Position numbers and translations under genes: made by a program. The notes beneath the pieces were generated by a model. The model was not told where the DNA came from. It saw nothing but the letters and a program-made list of their open reading frames with translations, and ran no database searches. Shown here piece after piece: positions 7,012 through 28,300 of a DNA stretch of 64,000 nucleotides (position 1 is its first letter; each line of letters opens with the position of its first letter). This stretch comes from a virus, in IMG/VR virus record IMGVR_UViG_3300042314_000343, positions 1-64,000 of that record; one strand, written 5' to 3'.

Positions 7012-7251
7012 TTGTATACGGACGCAATGAAGAGAGCTTTTCATTCATTAACACCGCCAAAGAATTTCGGGGTATCCCTGGAAGACGCAGAACACTTTAT
7101 CGTGGTTAGAGCCAAGGAAGACGTGTTCATGAGGCTGCTAGATGAAGATAAGAGAAGTGCTATAGAATATATGGCTCGTGTAAAGAAAGCCCTAGAGGAC
7201 AACGGAGCGATAGTTTTGTTGGTTAGAGAAGGCGGAAAGGAATCAGTATGA
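7012..7251 (+). CDS. Hypothetical protein
   Basis: Same frame as track ORF 6967; TTG start (MYTDAMKRAF) after whiB stop. Confidence 0.6.
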   Translation: MYTDAMKRAFHSLTPPKNFGVSLEDAEHFIVVRAKEDVFMRLLDEDKRSAIEYMARVKKALEDNGAIVLLVREGGKESV

Positions 7252-24569: not shown

Positions 24570-24735
24570 TAGATTTCCTTTCCTACTTGCTTACAAGTAT
24601 AGGGGTAGGGTCTGACATTATCAAGAGATTCTGGGAAATATTTTGTAAGGTTCTTAAAGGTTTATTTGTGAGTAAAAGGTTTGATATACATTGATGGGTT
24701 CTGGGGCCCCCGATCGAACATGCCAAAAGTGGAAT

Positions 24736-24762
24736 GGGCAGTTTTACTACATACCCAGGTAG
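24736..24762 (-). ncRNA. 27-nt H-type pseudoknot, copy 1
   Basis: CTAC-CT-GGGTA-T-GTAG-TAAAAC-TGCCC just 3' of the DUF932 stop. Confidence 0.7.
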
Positions 24763-24768
24763 GAATAC

Positions 24769-25767
24769 TTAGTTAGCCAAAACCAACTGAAGCAAGCGGT
24801 TTTTCTCTGCTGTGGTCACAGGGTCGAAACCAGATGCAGCAGCGAGAATACTCTCGTTAGTTCCACCTCGTGCTGAGCGATACCAATCCAAGCGTTCGGT
24901 TAGAGCGTTGAAAGCACCCCACTTGGTTCCAGCAATGGTGTTGTTGAAGTCACCAACATAGATACCGTTGATTAGGTCAATCTTGTCGTTGTGCTTCTTG
25001 AATGAACCCTTAGCGTCTTTCTCTGGTGCAGGGTAAGCAAGAGCAACAATCTTGTCGAACTGTGCCTTGGTGATTTCGGTCTCAATCATAGCTTTTGCCA
25101 TTTCATCGAACTTGTCCATATAAGCATTTGCCAAGCCTAATGCCTCACGTGCCTGCTGAACCTTGCCAGAAGCGGTAGCGGTGTGGCGAATCTTGAAGGT
25201 CTGCTTGATACCCTTGTTGCCCTTGCCAAGTGCTAGGTTTAGAGTGTTTGCACAGACAACACGCACAGGTGTAATGCTTGCCTGAATTGCCACTGAACCA
25301 TCGTGAGAGGTGTTGATTAGAAGATAAGTGTTTACCTTATCAGACACGCCGTTAGGGTCAAGAACGGTTTCACGCTCAAGAGCAAGCGAACCAAAAACCT
25401 GTCGTCCTCCCTTGATAGAACCAGCGGTCTCCCAGCGACCTCCGCCGTCTAGCATTAGGTCTCCAAAGTCAAATAGGTCTTCGTTCTGCAATGGAACATA
25501 ACGCTCACCAACTACGCCAAGAACATCGTTCTTAGTGTTGTCGAATGGGTTAGTGCGAGTGACAAAAGAGTAAGCCTTGTCAGAGGTGAAGGTGTCTGGA
25601 ATTGCTACGTCCTCTAGGCGAACATTCCACTTGTCAAGGTGTGCCAGCTTTAGCATTTCTGCGGTGGTAACTTCCTCAGTGAAGACAGTGCCAAGTCCGT
25701 GCCAAGCAGGTTCACGCAAAGAAGCAAAAGAGGTCTGTCCGTTTACGGTTTCTAGTTCGTGTGCCAT
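24769..25767 (-). CDS. DUF932 (TIGR03299-like) phage/plasmid protein
   Basis: MAHELE, PAWHGLG, ETAGSIKGGRQVF, NTSHDGS, TPVRVVCANTL, IRHT. Confidence 0.88.
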   Translation of the reverse strand: MAHELETVNGQTSFASLREPAWHGLGTVFTEEVTTAEMLKLAHLDKWNVRLEDVAIPDTFTSDKAYSFVTRTNPFDNTKNDVLGVVGERYVPLQNEDLFDFGDLMLDGGGRWETAGSIKGGRQVFGSLALERETVLDPNGVSDKVNTYLLINTSHDGSVAIQASITPVRVVCANTLNLALGKGNKGIKQTFKIRHTATASGKVQQAREALGLANAYMDKFDEMAKAMIETEITKAQFDKIVALAYPAPEKDAKGSFKKHNDKIDLINGIYVGDFNNTIAGTKWGAFNALTERLDWYRSARGGTNESILAAASGFDPVTTAEKNRLLQLVLAN

Positions 25768-25949
25768 ATGATTTCTTTCTGTTGGGGATTACTGATAAGA
25801 CAATTATACAGTGTAGGTCTGACATTGTAAAGAATCTGGGGAAAAATAATTAGACATCTTAAATAACGTTTTGGTTACGATCATTGATCTGGTGGCTGGG
25901 GGGCCCCACAACTACCCCCAGACTGTCAAGTCCAGGGGTAGCGTGTTGG

Positions 25950-26498
25950 TTACCTAACTAATTGAGAATCCTTACAGCTCACAAGGTAGTCATCTACGCT
26001 CATCTCACGAATGCTCTCAAAAGCCAAGACTAGAGAGATGTCCCAAGAACCCTTATACTTACTAAACTGGGTGTGGAAAAGTTCTCTGTCCAAGTCTACG
26101 GTGTAGATACCCTCGCAGAACAACTCGTCATTCTCAAACTCTAAGTCTCTGACAATAGGGATAGGGGAATCGTCCCAGTCAGCGATTACCCTGAAAATCT
26201 CTCCACCAGTATCTCTGGTTAGAGTTGGAAACTGCTCCGCAAACTTCTTGCCAGAATCCATAGACATAGACCCGTCCATAACTCCGTCCTGAAATGGCTT
26301 TAGAAGTGCTTCCACATCAGAGTCGCTGGGGTAGTAAATCTGTGGAATCTTATCAATAAAAGCCTTCACCACATCAGGGTTAGTCAGGGTATGGAATAGG
26401 GTAACACCCTGTCCCTCTGGATAGTGGTCCCATTGTCCATACTGGGCAACGATAACCTGATTCTTGTAGATAACCTTAGTTAGTCCTCTAGTTCCCAT
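25950..26498 (-). CDS. Hypothetical protein
   Basis: MGTR...YGQWDHYPEGQG; own promoter and SD. Confidence 0.8.
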   Translation of the reverse strand: MGTRGLTKVIYKNQVIVAQYGQWDHYPEGQGVTLFHTLTNPDVVKAFIDKIPQIYYPSDSDVEALLKPFQDGVMDGSMSMDSGKKFAEQFPTLTRDTGGEIFRVIADWDDSPIPIVRDLEFENDELFCEGIYTVDLDRELFHTQFSKYKGSWDISLVLAFESIREMSVDDYLVSCKDSQLVR

Positions 26499-26545
26499 TA
26501 TTCCTACTTTCTATTTAGATTATTATAAACTGGGGGTATGACATT

Positions 26546-26749
26546 TTAGAAGTCAACTAGAATGTCTTGGTCTACTCGTCTACCATACTCAAAAGCCAAG
26601 TTCTCGTCAATGATTTCTATTTCACCAGAACCATTGTCCCACTCCTCAGCAACGCTGGCTGGTAGGTCATCGGTGTCAAGAACATAGATAACACGGTTAG
26701 GCTGGTATTCCCACCAGTCACCATTCTCGTTTGCGATAAAAATTGCCAT
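26546..26749 (-). CDS. Hypothetical protein
   Basis: Start moved to MAIFIANE after AGAAAGGA. Confidence 0.75.
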   Translation of the reverse strand: MAIFIANENGDWWEYQPNRVIYVLDTDDLPASVAEEWDNGSGEIEIIDENLAFEYGRRVDQDILVDF

Positions 26750-27013
26750 TTGTATCCTTTCTTTAGTTATCTTATTATGACACAACCCTCTGACATTATC
26801 AATATCCAGCTTTTGGGGGGCCCCCGATCCAGGCAAAGAAAAACCACCCAAGCGAGGGTATCAGGTAGTATCATTTCTGACCTATGCTTCAACCGATAGC
26901 AGGGTGGTGTTCTTCGCCTCACAGCCTTGCGGTATTGCTAATGCTTGTTTCTTGTATCGTGGAAACCACCACGCTTGTAAGCCGTTGCCTAGGACACTTA
27001 CAAGAGGTCTAGT

Positions 27014-27040
27014 GAGCAGTTTAGACACTTGCTCAGGTGT
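27014..27040 (-). ncRNA. 27-nt H-type pseudoknot, copy 2
   Basis: ACAC-CT-GAGCA-A-GTGT-CTAAAC-TGCTC just 3' of stop at 27047. Confidence 0.7.
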
Positions 27041-27046
27041 GTCCCC

Positions 27047-27502
27047 TTAGATAAGGTCAATCACAGAGGAGTAGGAACTTGCGTTCACTTCCTCTTGAGA
27101 GGTCATCTTTAGGATACGAAGGTTCTTCTCAAGAATTGCCTTACGGGTGGTGTATTCCCTGCCAAAGTGCTGGTTGGTGTTTGGCTGTTCTGGCTTTACA
27201 GGCTTCTTTGGGAAGTTGGCAATAACTGAGATGTCCAACTCAATCTCAAACTTGTTCTGAGAGTAGTGGTTCTGAACTAGACGAATGGTGCTGTCATACT
27301 CAAAGCCAATCTTGTCAGCGTTGTTAGTGATGTAGTTGGTGGCAAACTTAGTTACCTCAGACTTGTATGCCTCTAGGTCTGCCTCATACTGCTTTACCTT
27401 CTCAGGGTAAGACTCAACATCAGCGTCAATCTGGGCAATAGTTGCCTCAATGTCAGCGATTAGAGCAGAGGTTGGGATTTTTACGGAAAGGGTTCTAGCC
27501 AT
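27047..27502 (-). CDS. Hypothetical coiled-coil protein
   Basis: Own promoter and AGAAAG leader. Confidence 0.8.
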   Translation of the reverse strand: MARTLSVKIPTSALIADIEATIAQIDADVESYPEKVKQYEADLEAYKSEVTKFATNYITNNADKIGFEYDSTIRLVQNHYSQNKFEIELDISVIANFPKKPVKPEQPNTNQHFGREYTTRKAILEKNLRILKMTSQEEVNASSYSSVIDLI

Positions 27503-27589
27503 TTCTTTCTACTTTCTTTTGGGTTAGTTACATTATAGGGGAAGGGTGTGACATTTTGGGTAGTTTATTGTGATACCCAGCACATCTGC

Positions 27590-27811
27590 CTAGAAAATAC
27601 CGAATACCTTCTTGCGAGGTTCAGTAATAGTCTTGACAATGACCTTTGGTTCTGGCATAGCCAAGAAACGGGTCTGGTTGGTAGCACCATCAAAAGTGCC
27701 GTTTGGGTTGCGAACAACTGCCTTGATACCTTCGCCAGACTTGGTGTTCCAAATCTCGGTGCGAACTTCTAGGCGTTGGTTTTTCTTCTGTGAAATAATC
27801 TTTCCAGACAT
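27590..27811 (-). CDS. Hypothetical basic protein
   Basis: Own promoter and GAGGA SD. Confidence 0.7.
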   Translation of the reverse strand: MSGKIISQKKNQRLEVRTEIWNTKSGEGIKAVVRNPNGTFDGATNQTRFLAMPEPKVIVKTITEPRKKVFGIF

Positions 27812-27920
27812 TTTATTCCTCTTTCTTTTCAGGGTAGTTCTATTGTAAAGGTGGGGTATGACATTTTAGTAAGAGGGGGGATAGAGAAAGGATAAGAAAC
27901 GCTATCCCCCCAAGACTAAA

Positions 27921-28067
27921 TTACTTTACAGTAGTCCAGCGGTCTTGACCATTTACATCAAGACGAACACGGAACGAACCCGTCTTGTTCTGGATTACTT
28001 CCTGAATTACACCTGACACGCCAGACTTAGCGGTGGTGAACTGTGAGCCAACAGTTAGAGTGTTCAT
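27921..28067 (-). CDS. 48-aa SH3/KOW-like microprotein (not in ORF track)
   Basis: MNTLTVGSQFTTAKSGVSGVIQEV...RWTTVK* with AGGAAG SD. Confidence 0.65.
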   Translation of the reverse strand: MNTLTVGSQFTTAKSGVSGVIQEVIQNKTGSFRVRLDVNGQDRWTTVK

Positions 28068-28273
28068 TTTGCTTCCTATTCCGCCCCAGAGGGACTGTTT
28101 TGATTATTTACCAACTTTTGTTGATAGGTCTATTATGCCAGAAAAATGAATAAACCACAAGAGGGAAACACTATTTTCTTTACAAAGTTTTGGGGGATTT
28201 TTTGTAGGTTTCGTAAATTGACAAGCAGTAGGCTGGGGGGGGCTCCGTTAGATCTTTGGGGGCCCCGAAAGGT

Positions 28274-28300
28274 GGCCAGTTTTACGTCATGGCCAGGACG
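28274..28300 (-). ncRNA. 27-nt H-type pseudoknot, copy 3
   Basis: CGTC-CT-GGCCA-T-GACG-TAAAAC-TGGCC. Confidence 0.7.

Follow-up and report, generated by a model that had tools for sequence, protein, structure and literature searches.

Four copies of a pseudoknot behind early genes

Which RNA element recurs behind the early genes on the minus strand of this phage, and what could it do at the ends of their messages? The window analysed here is a stretch of 64,000 nt from a 103-kb phage genome. A preliminary description had reported three copies of a 27-nt H-type pseudoknot (hereafter the knot), and all three sequences were found on the minus strand where it had placed them. When its invariant bases were used as a search pattern, only these three sites matched; 0.20 matches were expected, and three or more were seen in 0 of 100 shuffles. 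The count, however, is four. The additional copy (copy 4, 27557-27584) had been overlooked because its stem 2 ends in UA, not UG, after AAAC. A covariance model (R1) found exactly four copies in the 103-kb genome, with scores of 35.5-42.7 bits against 14.8 bits for the next best match; the four copies belonged to the training set of R1, and only the gap to the next match is informative. The copies and the genes upstream of them are as follows:

24735-24762, minus strand: knot copy 1, 6 nt past the TAA of the 332-aa DUF932 gene; R1 score 41.1 bits
24769-25767, minus strand: gene upstream of copy 1 (DUF932, PF06067; phrog_1221)
27013-27040, minus strand: knot copy 2, 6 nt past the TAA of the 151-aa gene; R1 score 42.7 bits
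27047-27502, minus strand: gene upstream of copy 2, 151 aa, no family
27557-27584, minus strand: knot copy 4, 5 nt past the TAG of the 73-aa ORF; R1 score 35.5 bits
27590-27811, minus strand: ORF upstream of copy 4, 73 aa
28273-28300, minus strand: knot copy 3, 63 nt past the TAA of the 244-aa GP88-family gene; R1 score 38.1 bits
28364-29098, minus strand: gene upstream of copy 3 (GP88, PF17338; phrog_1392)

The two copies previously noted to start about 6 nt from a stop codon are copies 1 and 2, each with a spacing of exactly 6 nt, and the association with gene ends extends to copy 4 (5 nt) and copy 3 (63 nt). The four are dispersed single copies, 0.5-2.3 kb apart, with a different stem 1 at each site. 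Copy 3 lies directly 3′ of an 8-bp hairpin. Copies 1-3 are followed by 160-205 nt without a convincing gene, and the GC blocks that punctuate the gene cassettes come after copies 1 and 3. A promoter-like box stands immediately after copy 4, and the 151-aa gene starts 55 nt past the 3′ end of that knot. When the intergenic regions of the three original copies were aligned, nothing was common to them beyond the knot and the GC blocks. We conclude that the four repeats are genuine copies of a 28-nt H-type pseudoknot, carried in the minus-strand transcripts of early genes.

Anatomy and covariation of the fold

Stem 1 consists of 4 bp, variable in sequence and always paired, and carries an 8-nt loop. 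The loop begins with C, has G as its third base and ends in A followed by A or U; its middle bases pair with the bases after the invariant AAAC to form stem 2, which has fixed end pairs and measures 6 bp in all four window copies and 5-6 bp across the family. The H-type topology of the preliminary description thus stands, but its boundaries shift: the U of its 'CU' linker pairs, in all four copies, with the A following each element, and therefore the element is 28 nt long and loop 1 is a single C, which crosses to stem 2. Among 74 distinct sequences, the pair of stem 1 that closes the loop is C-G 59 times, G-C 11 times and U-A 4 times (C-G in window copies 1-3, G-C in copy 4). One junction base follows stem 2 (A 44%, U 51%, C 4%). 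Loop 3 is composed of two free, variable bases (columns 17-18) and AAAC. AAAC-U is invariant across the family, and is followed by G (91%) or A (9%) and then by C (84%). The invariance claimed earlier for CUG and AAACUG holds in the three original window copies only, since both G positions are G in 91% of the family. The 3′ flank of the knot is C-rich and has no U-run. Nested folding recovers stem 2 only.

Both stems covary, with double changes at 8 of 10 pairs and a covariation score of 0.70 against 0.22 for shuffled sequences, and slid controls were paired at 24-38%. A sequence-only pattern applied to 80 related loci matched 249 sites on the gene strand, compared with 23 on the other; at least 3 of 4 stem-1 pairs together with at least 5 of 6 stem-2 pairs were present in 204 of the former and in 0 of the latter. 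Furthermore, a structure-only descriptor led to a single recurrent class with C as loop 1 and a loop 3 ending in AAAC, and AAAC was not imposed in the scan that first recovered this class. These pattern and pairing controls confirm a conserved structured RNA with true covariation in both stems.

As previously supposed, no named family fits the knot, and a search of Rfam 15 returned no match to it. Membership in GP20-b (RF03003) was considered and rejected: copy 3 alone gave a hit, with 17.3 bits against a gathering threshold of 36.2 and E = 3.2, and five other loci (65 kb, with many copies) gave no GP20-b match at their knots. Literature searches yielded nothing relevant on a phage or bacterial exoribonuclease-resistant RNA (xrRNA) or on a gene-end pseudoknot, and megablast against named phages gave nothing. 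The nearest named relatives, Streptomyces phage Angela and its kin, have no knot at the equivalent positions, where GC tetraloop hairpins are found.

The preliminary description had also listed a ligand aptamer and an antitoxin mimic. The preQ1-I aptamer is similar to the knot in size and topology, and type III antitoxins fold as pseudoknots, so that a riboswitch of the preQ1-I kind could be envisaged, as could mimicry of a type III antitoxin or CRISPR repeat. We give next to no credence to either. No preQ1 or other riboswitch match was found in Rfam even at E up to 10, the junction base varies between A and U, and the knot stands behind genes and lacks an expression platform. Similarly, a ToxI-like element would form a tandem array of near-identical repeats beside a gene for a toxin endoribonuclease; the four copies are dispersed, and a stem 1 that differs at every site is not tolerable for a mimic.

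Spread and placement across phages and bacteria

The knot is far more widespread than a feature of one phage. We found 388 copies in 200 related or pattern-matched IMG/VR stretches, and bacteria of many phyla have the fold as well, on at least 119 contigs; its carriers are dsDNA phage contigs and bacterial genomes, and Rhodococcus phage Trina is a cultured carrier. Of the 388 copies, 69 begin 5 nt past the stop codon, 56 begin 6 nt past it and 31 begin 7 nt past it; a shorter distance (0-4 nt) is seen in 4, and longer distances form a tail. The sharp onset at 5 nt recurs in the bacterial contigs. The copies stand behind 97 different, unrelated protein clusters. Many lie 10-60 nt from the stop, and about one fifth, copy 3 among them, are more than 30 nt from the stop of the nearest long ORF. 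In bacteria, 19-21 mini-ORF units have a knot that overlaps the stop codon, which falls inside stem 2, and that is followed by a canonical intrinsic terminator. We conclude that the knot is a module which phages and bacteria position at gene ends.

In 42 of the 388 copies a tRNA gene on the same strand begins 1-13 nt downstream, and transcription must therefore run through the knot. This bears on a transcription-level signal, either a terminator or a put- or nut-like RNA that renders RNA polymerase terminator-resistant. Several copies per early region, placed at cassette ends and often just upstream of GC-rich hairpins, would suit such a signal, which we nevertheless regard as very improbable. 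An intrinsic terminator was rejected on the absence of a U-run from the C-rich 3′ flank and on the tRNA genes directly downstream, which need read-through. The knot has no likeness to put or nut RNAs and no Rfam match. The genes that it follows number 97 unrelated ones, and it is also found outside phages, in some cases immediately before intrinsic terminators that work.

The sequence after the knot was also inspected. In this phage family CCA follows 13% of copies against a background of 1.4% (9-fold), but this bias is absent from the bacterial set. A tRNA-like acceptor end was accordingly discarded as a candidate, and the CCA enrichment is taken as a lineage quirk. The 36 nt after 326 distinct copies have a mean folding energy of -4.1 kcal/mol, compared with -3.5 for shuffles and -4.2 for a window 40 nt further on, so no downstream hairpin is enriched by these two comparisons. 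A crude sorting of what follows the knot (promoter, GC block or SD-start) does not tell the directional models apart.

A recognition site for a protein or RNP could also be proposed, bound by a phage or host regulator or by a processing enzyme (RNase P or RNase E, for example) that would act on a coaxial helix resembling tRNA. The invariant single-stranded bases (the loop-1 C and AAAC) and the fixed end pairs of stem 2 are what such a site would show, and the CCA in this phage family recalls a tRNA acceptor end. However, in coremin, a plant RNA virus knot, mutagenesis in protein-free assays links these same invariant bases to the fold itself; the CCA bias fails in bacteria; and that the element is found in many phyla and in phages unrelated to one another speaks against a partner specific to phages. 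We consider a recognition site improbable.

A proposed mechanical roadblock at message 3′ ends

We propose that the knot works as a mechanical roadblock, by which the 3′ end of the message before it is both set and shielded, and we put the probability of this reading at roughly 45%. The A-rich loop 3 would lie in the minor groove of stem 1, with the single C touching stem 2; luteovirus knots are known to make such contacts, and a model of coremin proposes them too. A fold of this kind would be unusually force-resistant. By analogy, the knot may be as strong as coremin-type knots, at which Xrn1 and scanning ribosomes stall and which induce -1 frameshifting, also in E. coli. With the stop codon in the A site, a knot that begins at least 5 nt past it would be just outside the mRNA entry and helicase site of the ribosome, and would thus stay folded during termination; almost no naked RNA would separate it from the last ribosome. 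New 3′ ends may arise by termination, by endonucleolytic cutting, or by RNase P at a tRNA 1-13 nt downstream, in which case cleavage would leave the knot at the new 3′ end. 3′-to-5′ exonucleases would then trim back to the knot and halt there. For coremin and other xrRNAs the block was shown for 5′-to-3′ enzymes, and 3′-to-5′ arrest at the knot is our proposal.

The roadblock is in line with the 5-nt onset, the 97 protein clusters, the 42 knot-then-tRNA cases, the promoter-like box after copy 4 and the GC blocks. Against it, a 3′ cap would be redundant in the 19-21 bacterial knot-terminator units, where the 5-nt rule is also broken; about one fifth of the copies, copy 3 included, lie more than 30 nt from a stop; and the crude classing of what follows the knot is not decisive. 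The preliminary description had named a nuclease block or a processing signal among several options, and the context (the spacing rule, the downstream tRNA genes and the coremin-like core) now favours that direction.

The same fold could act from the other side, halting a 5′-to-3′ enzyme (RNase J, or RNase E scanning in its 5′-end-dependent mode) after the ORF has decayed, so that whatever RNA follows the knot would survive, be it the next cistron or a stable, non-coding piece of 3′ RNA. Position for position, the core resembles that of coremin at the bases essential against Xrn1: the AAAC-U run, the pyrimidine linker, the closing C-G, and the A and non-C bases that end the loop. Flaviviral xrRNA blocks bacterial RNase J1 too, and such blocks are therefore enzyme-independent. 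In addition, the 160-205 nt without a convincing gene behind copies 1-3 could be such a piece, and in the bacterial mini-ORF units the knot and the terminator would make a small stable RNA. On the other hand, Xrn1 resistance of coremin needs a second hairpin directly downstream, and knots without one are degraded; no such hairpin is enriched after the knot copies. Where a tRNA begins 1-13 nt downstream, a block has nothing to protect, as the leader is cut off by RNase P. It is the upstream stop codon, and not the start of the downstream gene, to which the position of the knot is bound, and copy 4 lies upstream of the next gene's own promoter-like box. We rate protection of the downstream RNA as unlikely.

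A ribosome-directed role was also weighed, in which the knot would tune termination or recycling, or would stop non-terminating or scanning ribosomes and so uncouple neighbouring cistrons. Elements that stimulate frameshifting or readthrough have a spacer of the same length as the 5-7-nt spacing seen here, whose onset at 5 nt is sharp; knots of the coremin type stop scanning ribosomes and withstand the ribosome of E. coli; and in the bacterial mini-ORF units the stop codon is inside stem 2. We rate this role as decidedly unlikely, since no conserved slippery heptamer was found and no frame (0, -1 or +1) is open past the stop (medians of 8, 9 and 7 codons), and since numerous copies either are 10-60 nt away from the stop or directly precede a tRNA gene, where there is no CDS to insulate. 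In the window, the reading frames continue open for 54-77 codons beyond the stop codons of the 332-, 151- and 244-aa genes, which looked suggestive of stop-codon readthrough or recoding. This candidate was rejected, as the extensions in relatives are short and unconserved, with all-frame medians of 7-9 codons.

Under the roadblock reading, the knot probably caps or insulates message ends. If it does stop nucleases or ribosomes, phages and bacteria would have in it a portable device of general use for setting where messages end and how stable they are, a role so far ascribed to terminator hairpins, REP elements and bound proteins. A further step, which we hold to be doubtful, is that the knot represents the first prokaryotic class of exoribonuclease-resistant RNA, a 28-nt fold with the coremin tertiary core that halts RNase J-type or 3′ exonucleases at gene ends in phages and in bacteria of many phyla. 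If so, knots would set mRNA half-lives and could yield stable 3′-derived non-coding RNAs; the xrRNA concept would reach prokaryotes, programmed exonuclease resistance in bacteria and phages would become testable, and DNA phages, bacteria and the RNA viruses of plants and fungi would all have arrived at, or retained, one minimal roadblock fold. Natural copies number in the hundreds to thousands, with strict placement and full covariation, and are absent from Rfam 15 and from the literature searched. The small size of the knot suits NMR, crystallography and use as an insulator in synthetic biology, and the cultured carrier, Trina, makes experiments straightforward.

Comparison with known systems

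The preQ1-I riboswitch aptamer (RF00522) is likewise an H-type pseudoknot of very small size whose loop 3 is rich in A. Unlike it, the knot has no Rfam match and no conserved ligand-pairing junction C, and it stands behind genes, not in leaders. At the 3′ ends of MALAT1 and MEN-beta a triple helix is followed by a tRNA-like RNase P substrate. The 42 knot-then-tRNA cases match this arrangement, in which a compact triple-strand structure rich in A, immediately before an RNase P site, would end up as the protected 3′ end of the RNA upstream. The likeness is one of logic alone: theirs is a U-A-U triple helix with a genomic A-tract, eukaryotic and nuclear. The 5′ half of GP20-b can be read with the same layout as the knot (short stem, linker, 5-bp stem, UAAAA loop), but the linker and the last base of loop 3 differ, and the alignment of copy 3 was aided by a chance downstream hairpin.

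BWYV (tested in PMC10321173), PEMV-1 and ScYLV carry compact luteovirus-type frameshifting pseudoknots. In these, as in the knot, about 28 nt form an H-type fold with one junction base, a loop 1 of 1-2 nt starting with C and an A-rich loop 3 of 6-7 nt, located 5-8 nt downstream of the A-site codon; loop 3 lies in the minor groove of stem 1, as it would in the knot. The modal spacing of 5-7 nt falls within the 5-9 nt downstream of the recoding site at which frameshift stimulators act. In the knot, however, the A-site codon is a stop, slippery heptamer and alternative open frame are absent, stem 2 is longer and stem 1 is shorter.

The closest known system is the coremin or xrRNA-C knot of plant RNA viruses, which, including its Watson-Crick type xrRNA-WCC, is known from beny-, cucumo- and other eukaryotic RNA viruses (Dilweg et al., PMC6546385, PMC10520033, PMC10321173). 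The two differ in several respects. The knot is carried by dsDNA phages and bacteria, which lack Xrn1, whereas coremin belongs to eukaryotic RNA viruses. The loop is 8 nt long in the knot and 4-7 nt in coremin, with G as third and second base, respectively; of the coremin loop-1 consensus YGAD/YGNNAD, only the Y...AD ends fit. Stem 2 is a full Watson-Crick helix of 5-6 bp, compared with 2-3 pairs in coremin, and the obligatory second hairpin of coremin (at least 4 bp) is not conserved behind the knot. In BNYVV a G-C closing pair abolished Xrn1 stalling, and window copy 4 has G-C. The essential spacer bases of coremin are AAA, C, U and A, where the knot has G (91%) at the last position. What the two share is the core. 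Both have a first hairpin of 3-4 bp (4 bp in the knot), usually closed by C-G, a single pyrimidine linker, and A and non-C as the last loop bases. In both, two tolerant bases after the hairpin are followed by AAAC-U in the same register, at positions where mutations in coremin abolish Xrn1 stalling. In the coremin model, as in the knot, loop bases pair after AAAC and the As would lie in the minor groove of stem 1. Finally, both are located in 3′ UTRs or intergenic regions, often in several copies per genome.

Four copies of a 28-nt pseudoknot in the early region

A pseudoknot of the H type had been described at three minus-strand sites of the window, and all three were present at the positions given. 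A pattern composed of the bases taken to be invariant matched 3 sites in the 64 kb, all on the same strand; 0.20 matches were expected, and 3 were reached in 0 of 100 shuffles. The structural scan of the window, whose only requirements were two stems (the first of 4 bp, the second of 5 bp), a linker and an A-rich loop, returned these sites and a fourth copy at 27584-27557 (minus strand), so that the earlier count of three was too low. Copy 4 had escaped the earlier rule because its second stem begins, after AAAC, with UA and not UG. Hence, of the supposedly invariant AAACTG only AAACT is kept throughout. The 'CU' linker was also revised in part: the C is unpaired, but in 4 of 4 copies the U is paired to the A just past the element, and the unit is therefore 28 nt long rather than 27.

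Parts of the pseudoknot
Stem 1: 4 bp
Loop 1: one C
Stem 2: 6 bp
Junction: one base
Loop 3: two free bases and AAAC

The four copies are clustered in 3.6 kb of the minus-strand early region. With a covariance model built from relatives they scored 35.5-42.7 bits, and the rest of the 103,317-bp record scored at most 14.8 bits; the window copies were included in the training, so only the score gap is informative.

Knot copies and adjoining features in the window
24735-24762, minus strand: copy 1, 6 nt after the upstream stop codon
27013-27040, minus strand: copy 2, 6 nt after the stop codon
28273-28300, minus strand: copy 3, 63 nt after the stop codon
27557-27584, minus strand: copy 4, 5 nt after the stop codon
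28302-28340, minus strand: 8-bp hairpin directly 5′ of copy 3
27530-27556, minus strand: promoter-like box directly after copy 4
24690-24705 and 28252-28270, minus strand: GGGGCCCC-type GC blocks, 3-35 nt after copies 1 and 3

The genes upstream of copies 1, 2, 4 and 3 code, in this order, for a DUF932 protein (332 aa), a 151-aa protein without family, a 73-aa ORF product and a GP88-family protein (244 aa). The source record is an IMG/VR phage contig with an estimated completeness of 95%. Its host is likely actinobacterial, since the closest named relatives are Streptomyces cluster-BE-like phages (Angela and others; DUF932 identity 56%) and Rhodococcus phage Trina. The early region is a run of small cassettes, with GC blocks and promoter-like boxes between them. 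The boxes consist of TGTCA, then ∼11 nt, then a -10 hexamer TAnAnT, a spacing that appears to match that of actinobacterial -26 (PafBC-type) promoters; boxes of this kind recur at some ten more intergenic positions from 26.5 to 33.1 kb. In the loop of the hairpin beside copy 3 there is a run, CCUUUCU, that is complementary to Shine-Dalgarno sequences of the AGAAAGG type in the early genes; several relatives have comparable hairpins ahead of their knots. Past the knot, at 15-30 nt, a GC hairpin is often found in related phages.

The element could not be assigned to a named family, as the preliminary description had also stated: at gathering thresholds, Rfam 15 returned tRNAs alone. When E values up to 10 were admitted, the sole overlapping match was GP20-b (RF03003) at copy 3, with 17.3 bits against a gathering threshold of 36.2, and it was not repeated at ∼17 other copies or in 18 bacterial loci. 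From the consensus alone, the 5′ half of RF03003 can be drawn as a pseudoknot (short stem, linker, 5-bp stem, UAAAA loop) followed by a hairpin, a layout that the Rfam annotation does not carry and that resembles coremin, the xrRNA-C motif of eukaryotic RNA viruses. Full-text literature searches found no such element described for phages or bacteria.

Strand asymmetry and covariation support the fold

Eighty related viral loci, of at least 597, were collected via the DUF932 protein. A descriptor of structure alone, with every base left free, matched 219 times on the gene strand and 92 times on the other. One class, with C as loop 1 and a loop 3 ending in AAAC, accounted for 116 of the 219, and no second recurrent class of similar kind was observed among the matches in these loci. 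In the AAAC class the terminal pairs of stem 2, at both ends, were invariant or nearly so, although the descriptor demanded pairing alone. Conversely, a sequence-only pattern with no pairing imposed gave 249 gene-strand matches versus 23 on the opposite strand; at least 3 of 4 stem-1 and 5 of 6 stem-2 pairs could form in 204 of the former and in none of the latter. The unbiased support for the structure comes from the asymmetry between strands and from the sequence-only test.

Both stems had been said to vary while remaining paired, and this was borne out. Among 74 distinct sequences both sides were changed in 8 of 10 pairs, with up to six pair types at a stem-1 position. The covariation score was 0.70, against 0.22 in shuffled alignments, and was reached in 0 of 500 shuffles; sliding the partners by 1-3 columns lowered pairing to 24-38%. 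The alignment was chosen for pairing, so that its '100% paired' holds by construction. Nested folding predicts stem 2 alone, and stem 1 rests on covariation.

Knots stand at gene ends and before tRNA genes

The 80 loci were pooled with the genome itself and with 120 more viral stretches, which had matched one sub-type pattern. This pooled set yielded at least 388 copies from 201 sources. Distances were counted to the closest upstream stop of ORFs of at least 40 codons; the ORF calls were mechanical, and some distances, chiefly those <5 nt or >30 nt, may concern the wrong ORF.

Distance from stop codon to knot (388 collected copies)
0-4 nt: 4 copies
5 nt: 69 copies
6 nt: 56 copies
7 nt: 31 copies
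8 nt: 17 copies
9 nt: 25 copies
>9 nt: long tail

In the window, the spacing of about 6 nt reported earlier for two copies is exactly 6 nt, for copies 1 and 2. The proteins upstream of the 388 copies fell into 97 clusters, and the knot is therefore a general gene-end module and not the partner of a single gene. A same-strand tRNA gene follows 1-13 nt after the knot in 42 of the 388 copies (tRNA-Asp in 34 of the 42), and these make up one third of all tRNA genes (121) in the pooled loci. 'CCA' directly after the knot was found in 13% of distinct phage copies, versus a background of 1.4%; no such excess was seen in the bacterial set. In many relatives the order is DUF932 gene, knot and, 1-13 nt on, a tRNA gene, mostly for Asp. 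The tRNA genes of the window lie elsewhere, at positions 1.4-14.3 kb on the plus strand.

DUF932-knot-tRNA order in collected phage stretches
L035, L042, L043, L061, L064, L072, L074, L078 and L079: around 7030-7140 in most

These placements point to a role at the 3′ end. Such a role is favoured because of the stop-codon spacing rule, because tRNA genes stand directly downstream, because a promoter-like box directly follows copy 4, and because the position is tied to upstream stops and not to downstream starts. We suggest, with a probability of roughly 0.45, that the knot caps the 3′ end of the upstream message and halts 3′-to-5′ exonucleases. The ribosomal helicase site lies ∼11 nt from the first P-site base. 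With the stop codon in the A site, a knot at least 5 nt on would have its first stem-1 pair just past this site, and terminating ribosomes would not need to melt it, though it would stand as near as possible. RNase P cleavage at a downstream tRNA would then leave the knot 1-13 nt from the new 3′ end, as a force-resistant cap that could stop the exonucleases with no linker exposed.

The main alternative takes the opposite direction, that of coremin: the knot would block RNase J or 5′-end-dependent RNase E scanning and shield the downstream RNA. Its core does match coremin, and a flaviviral xrRNA has been shown to stop bacterial RNase J1, but the second hairpin is missing and knots stand directly before tRNA genes, and we regard this reading as unlikely. 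Ribosome-directed, protein-binding, transcriptional and ligand-binding readings are also less likely. No recoding product was evident, the frame past the stop being short in relatives (median open length of 8, 9 and 7 codons in frames 0, -1 and +1), and no slippery heptamer recurred.

The knot in bacteria and in a cultured phage

One sub-type pattern, for which ∼4 chance matches were expected in 596 Gb, matched bacterial genomes and MAGs in at least 119 contigs. Phyla among the matches listed include Saccharibacteria, Firmicutes, Actinomycetes, Chloroflexi, Aminicenantes, Desulfobacterota, Cyanobacteria, Bacteroidota, Proteobacteria and Spirochaetes. The unconstrained stem-1 bases pair in 115 of the 122 bacterial matches listed, in which the stop-codon spacing likewise begins at 5 nt.

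A conserved mini-ORF of 20-23 aa (roughly M-K-R-F-M-V-P-R-V-A/S-H-C-x-x-G-C-x-x-x-S) ends within the knot in 19-21 bacterial units; the UGA of stem 2 is the mini-ORF's own stop.

Mini-ORF with knot in collected bacterial stretches
L212:109-168, plus strand
L315:1678-1737, plus strand
L261:2745-2804, minus strand

About 18 further loci were seen among stretches L205-L323. The carriers are MAGs of Aminicenantes, Thermodesulfobacteriota, Anaerolineae, Actinomycetes, Eubacteriales and others. Every unit has its own promoter-like boxes and Shine-Dalgarno sequence, and an intrinsic terminator 5-30 nt past the knot. Searches of Pfam, NCBIfam and Rfam gave no match to the unit, which may encode a small protein or act as a leader-peptide device. 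With the knot over the stop and a normal terminator next to it, these units do not fit the cap model neatly.

Among cultured phages, Rhodococcus phage Trina carries one copy, with a 3-bp stem 1, and offers an experimentally tractable carrier. In the Angela-type Streptomyces phages the knot is absent, and GC tetraloop hairpins stand at matching positions.

Knot of phage Trina
MF668286.1 113902-113928 (L332:4054-4080), plus strand: 28.2 bits with the covariance model; between gene 210, the DUF932 homologue, whose stop codon lies 6 nt upstream, and gene 211, whose start codon lies 20 nt downstream

Comparison with coremin and frameshift knots

Coremin is 20 nt long. Its hairpin, of 3-4 bp, is closed by a C-G pair and has a YGAD loop (YGNNAD when longer). 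In the spacer, two bases that tolerate change precede AAA, C, U and A, and Xrn1 stalling depends on every one of these four elements; a second hairpin is obligatory. Its authors proposed that loop bases pair with the bases after AAA while the A's lie in the stem-1 groove, and in the Watson-Crick type these pairs were proven by compensatory mutation. The coremin knot stalls scanning ribosomes and drives -1 frameshifting, an E. coli screen included (PMC6546385, PMC10520033, PMC10321173).

The phage element shares with coremin the hairpin size, the closing pair, the single pyrimidine linker, a loop ending in A and a non-C base, and two free bases followed by AAAC-U in identical register. Unlike coremin, it has an 8-nt loop whose middle forms a full stem 2 of 5-6 bp, carries its G at the third and not the second loop position, and lacks a conserved second hairpin; these three differences place it outside the coremin family as defined. 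The simplest reading is that it has the core fold of coremin with a longer Watson-Crick stem 2. It is just as similar to the luteovirus frameshift knots in its size and in the design of its loops.
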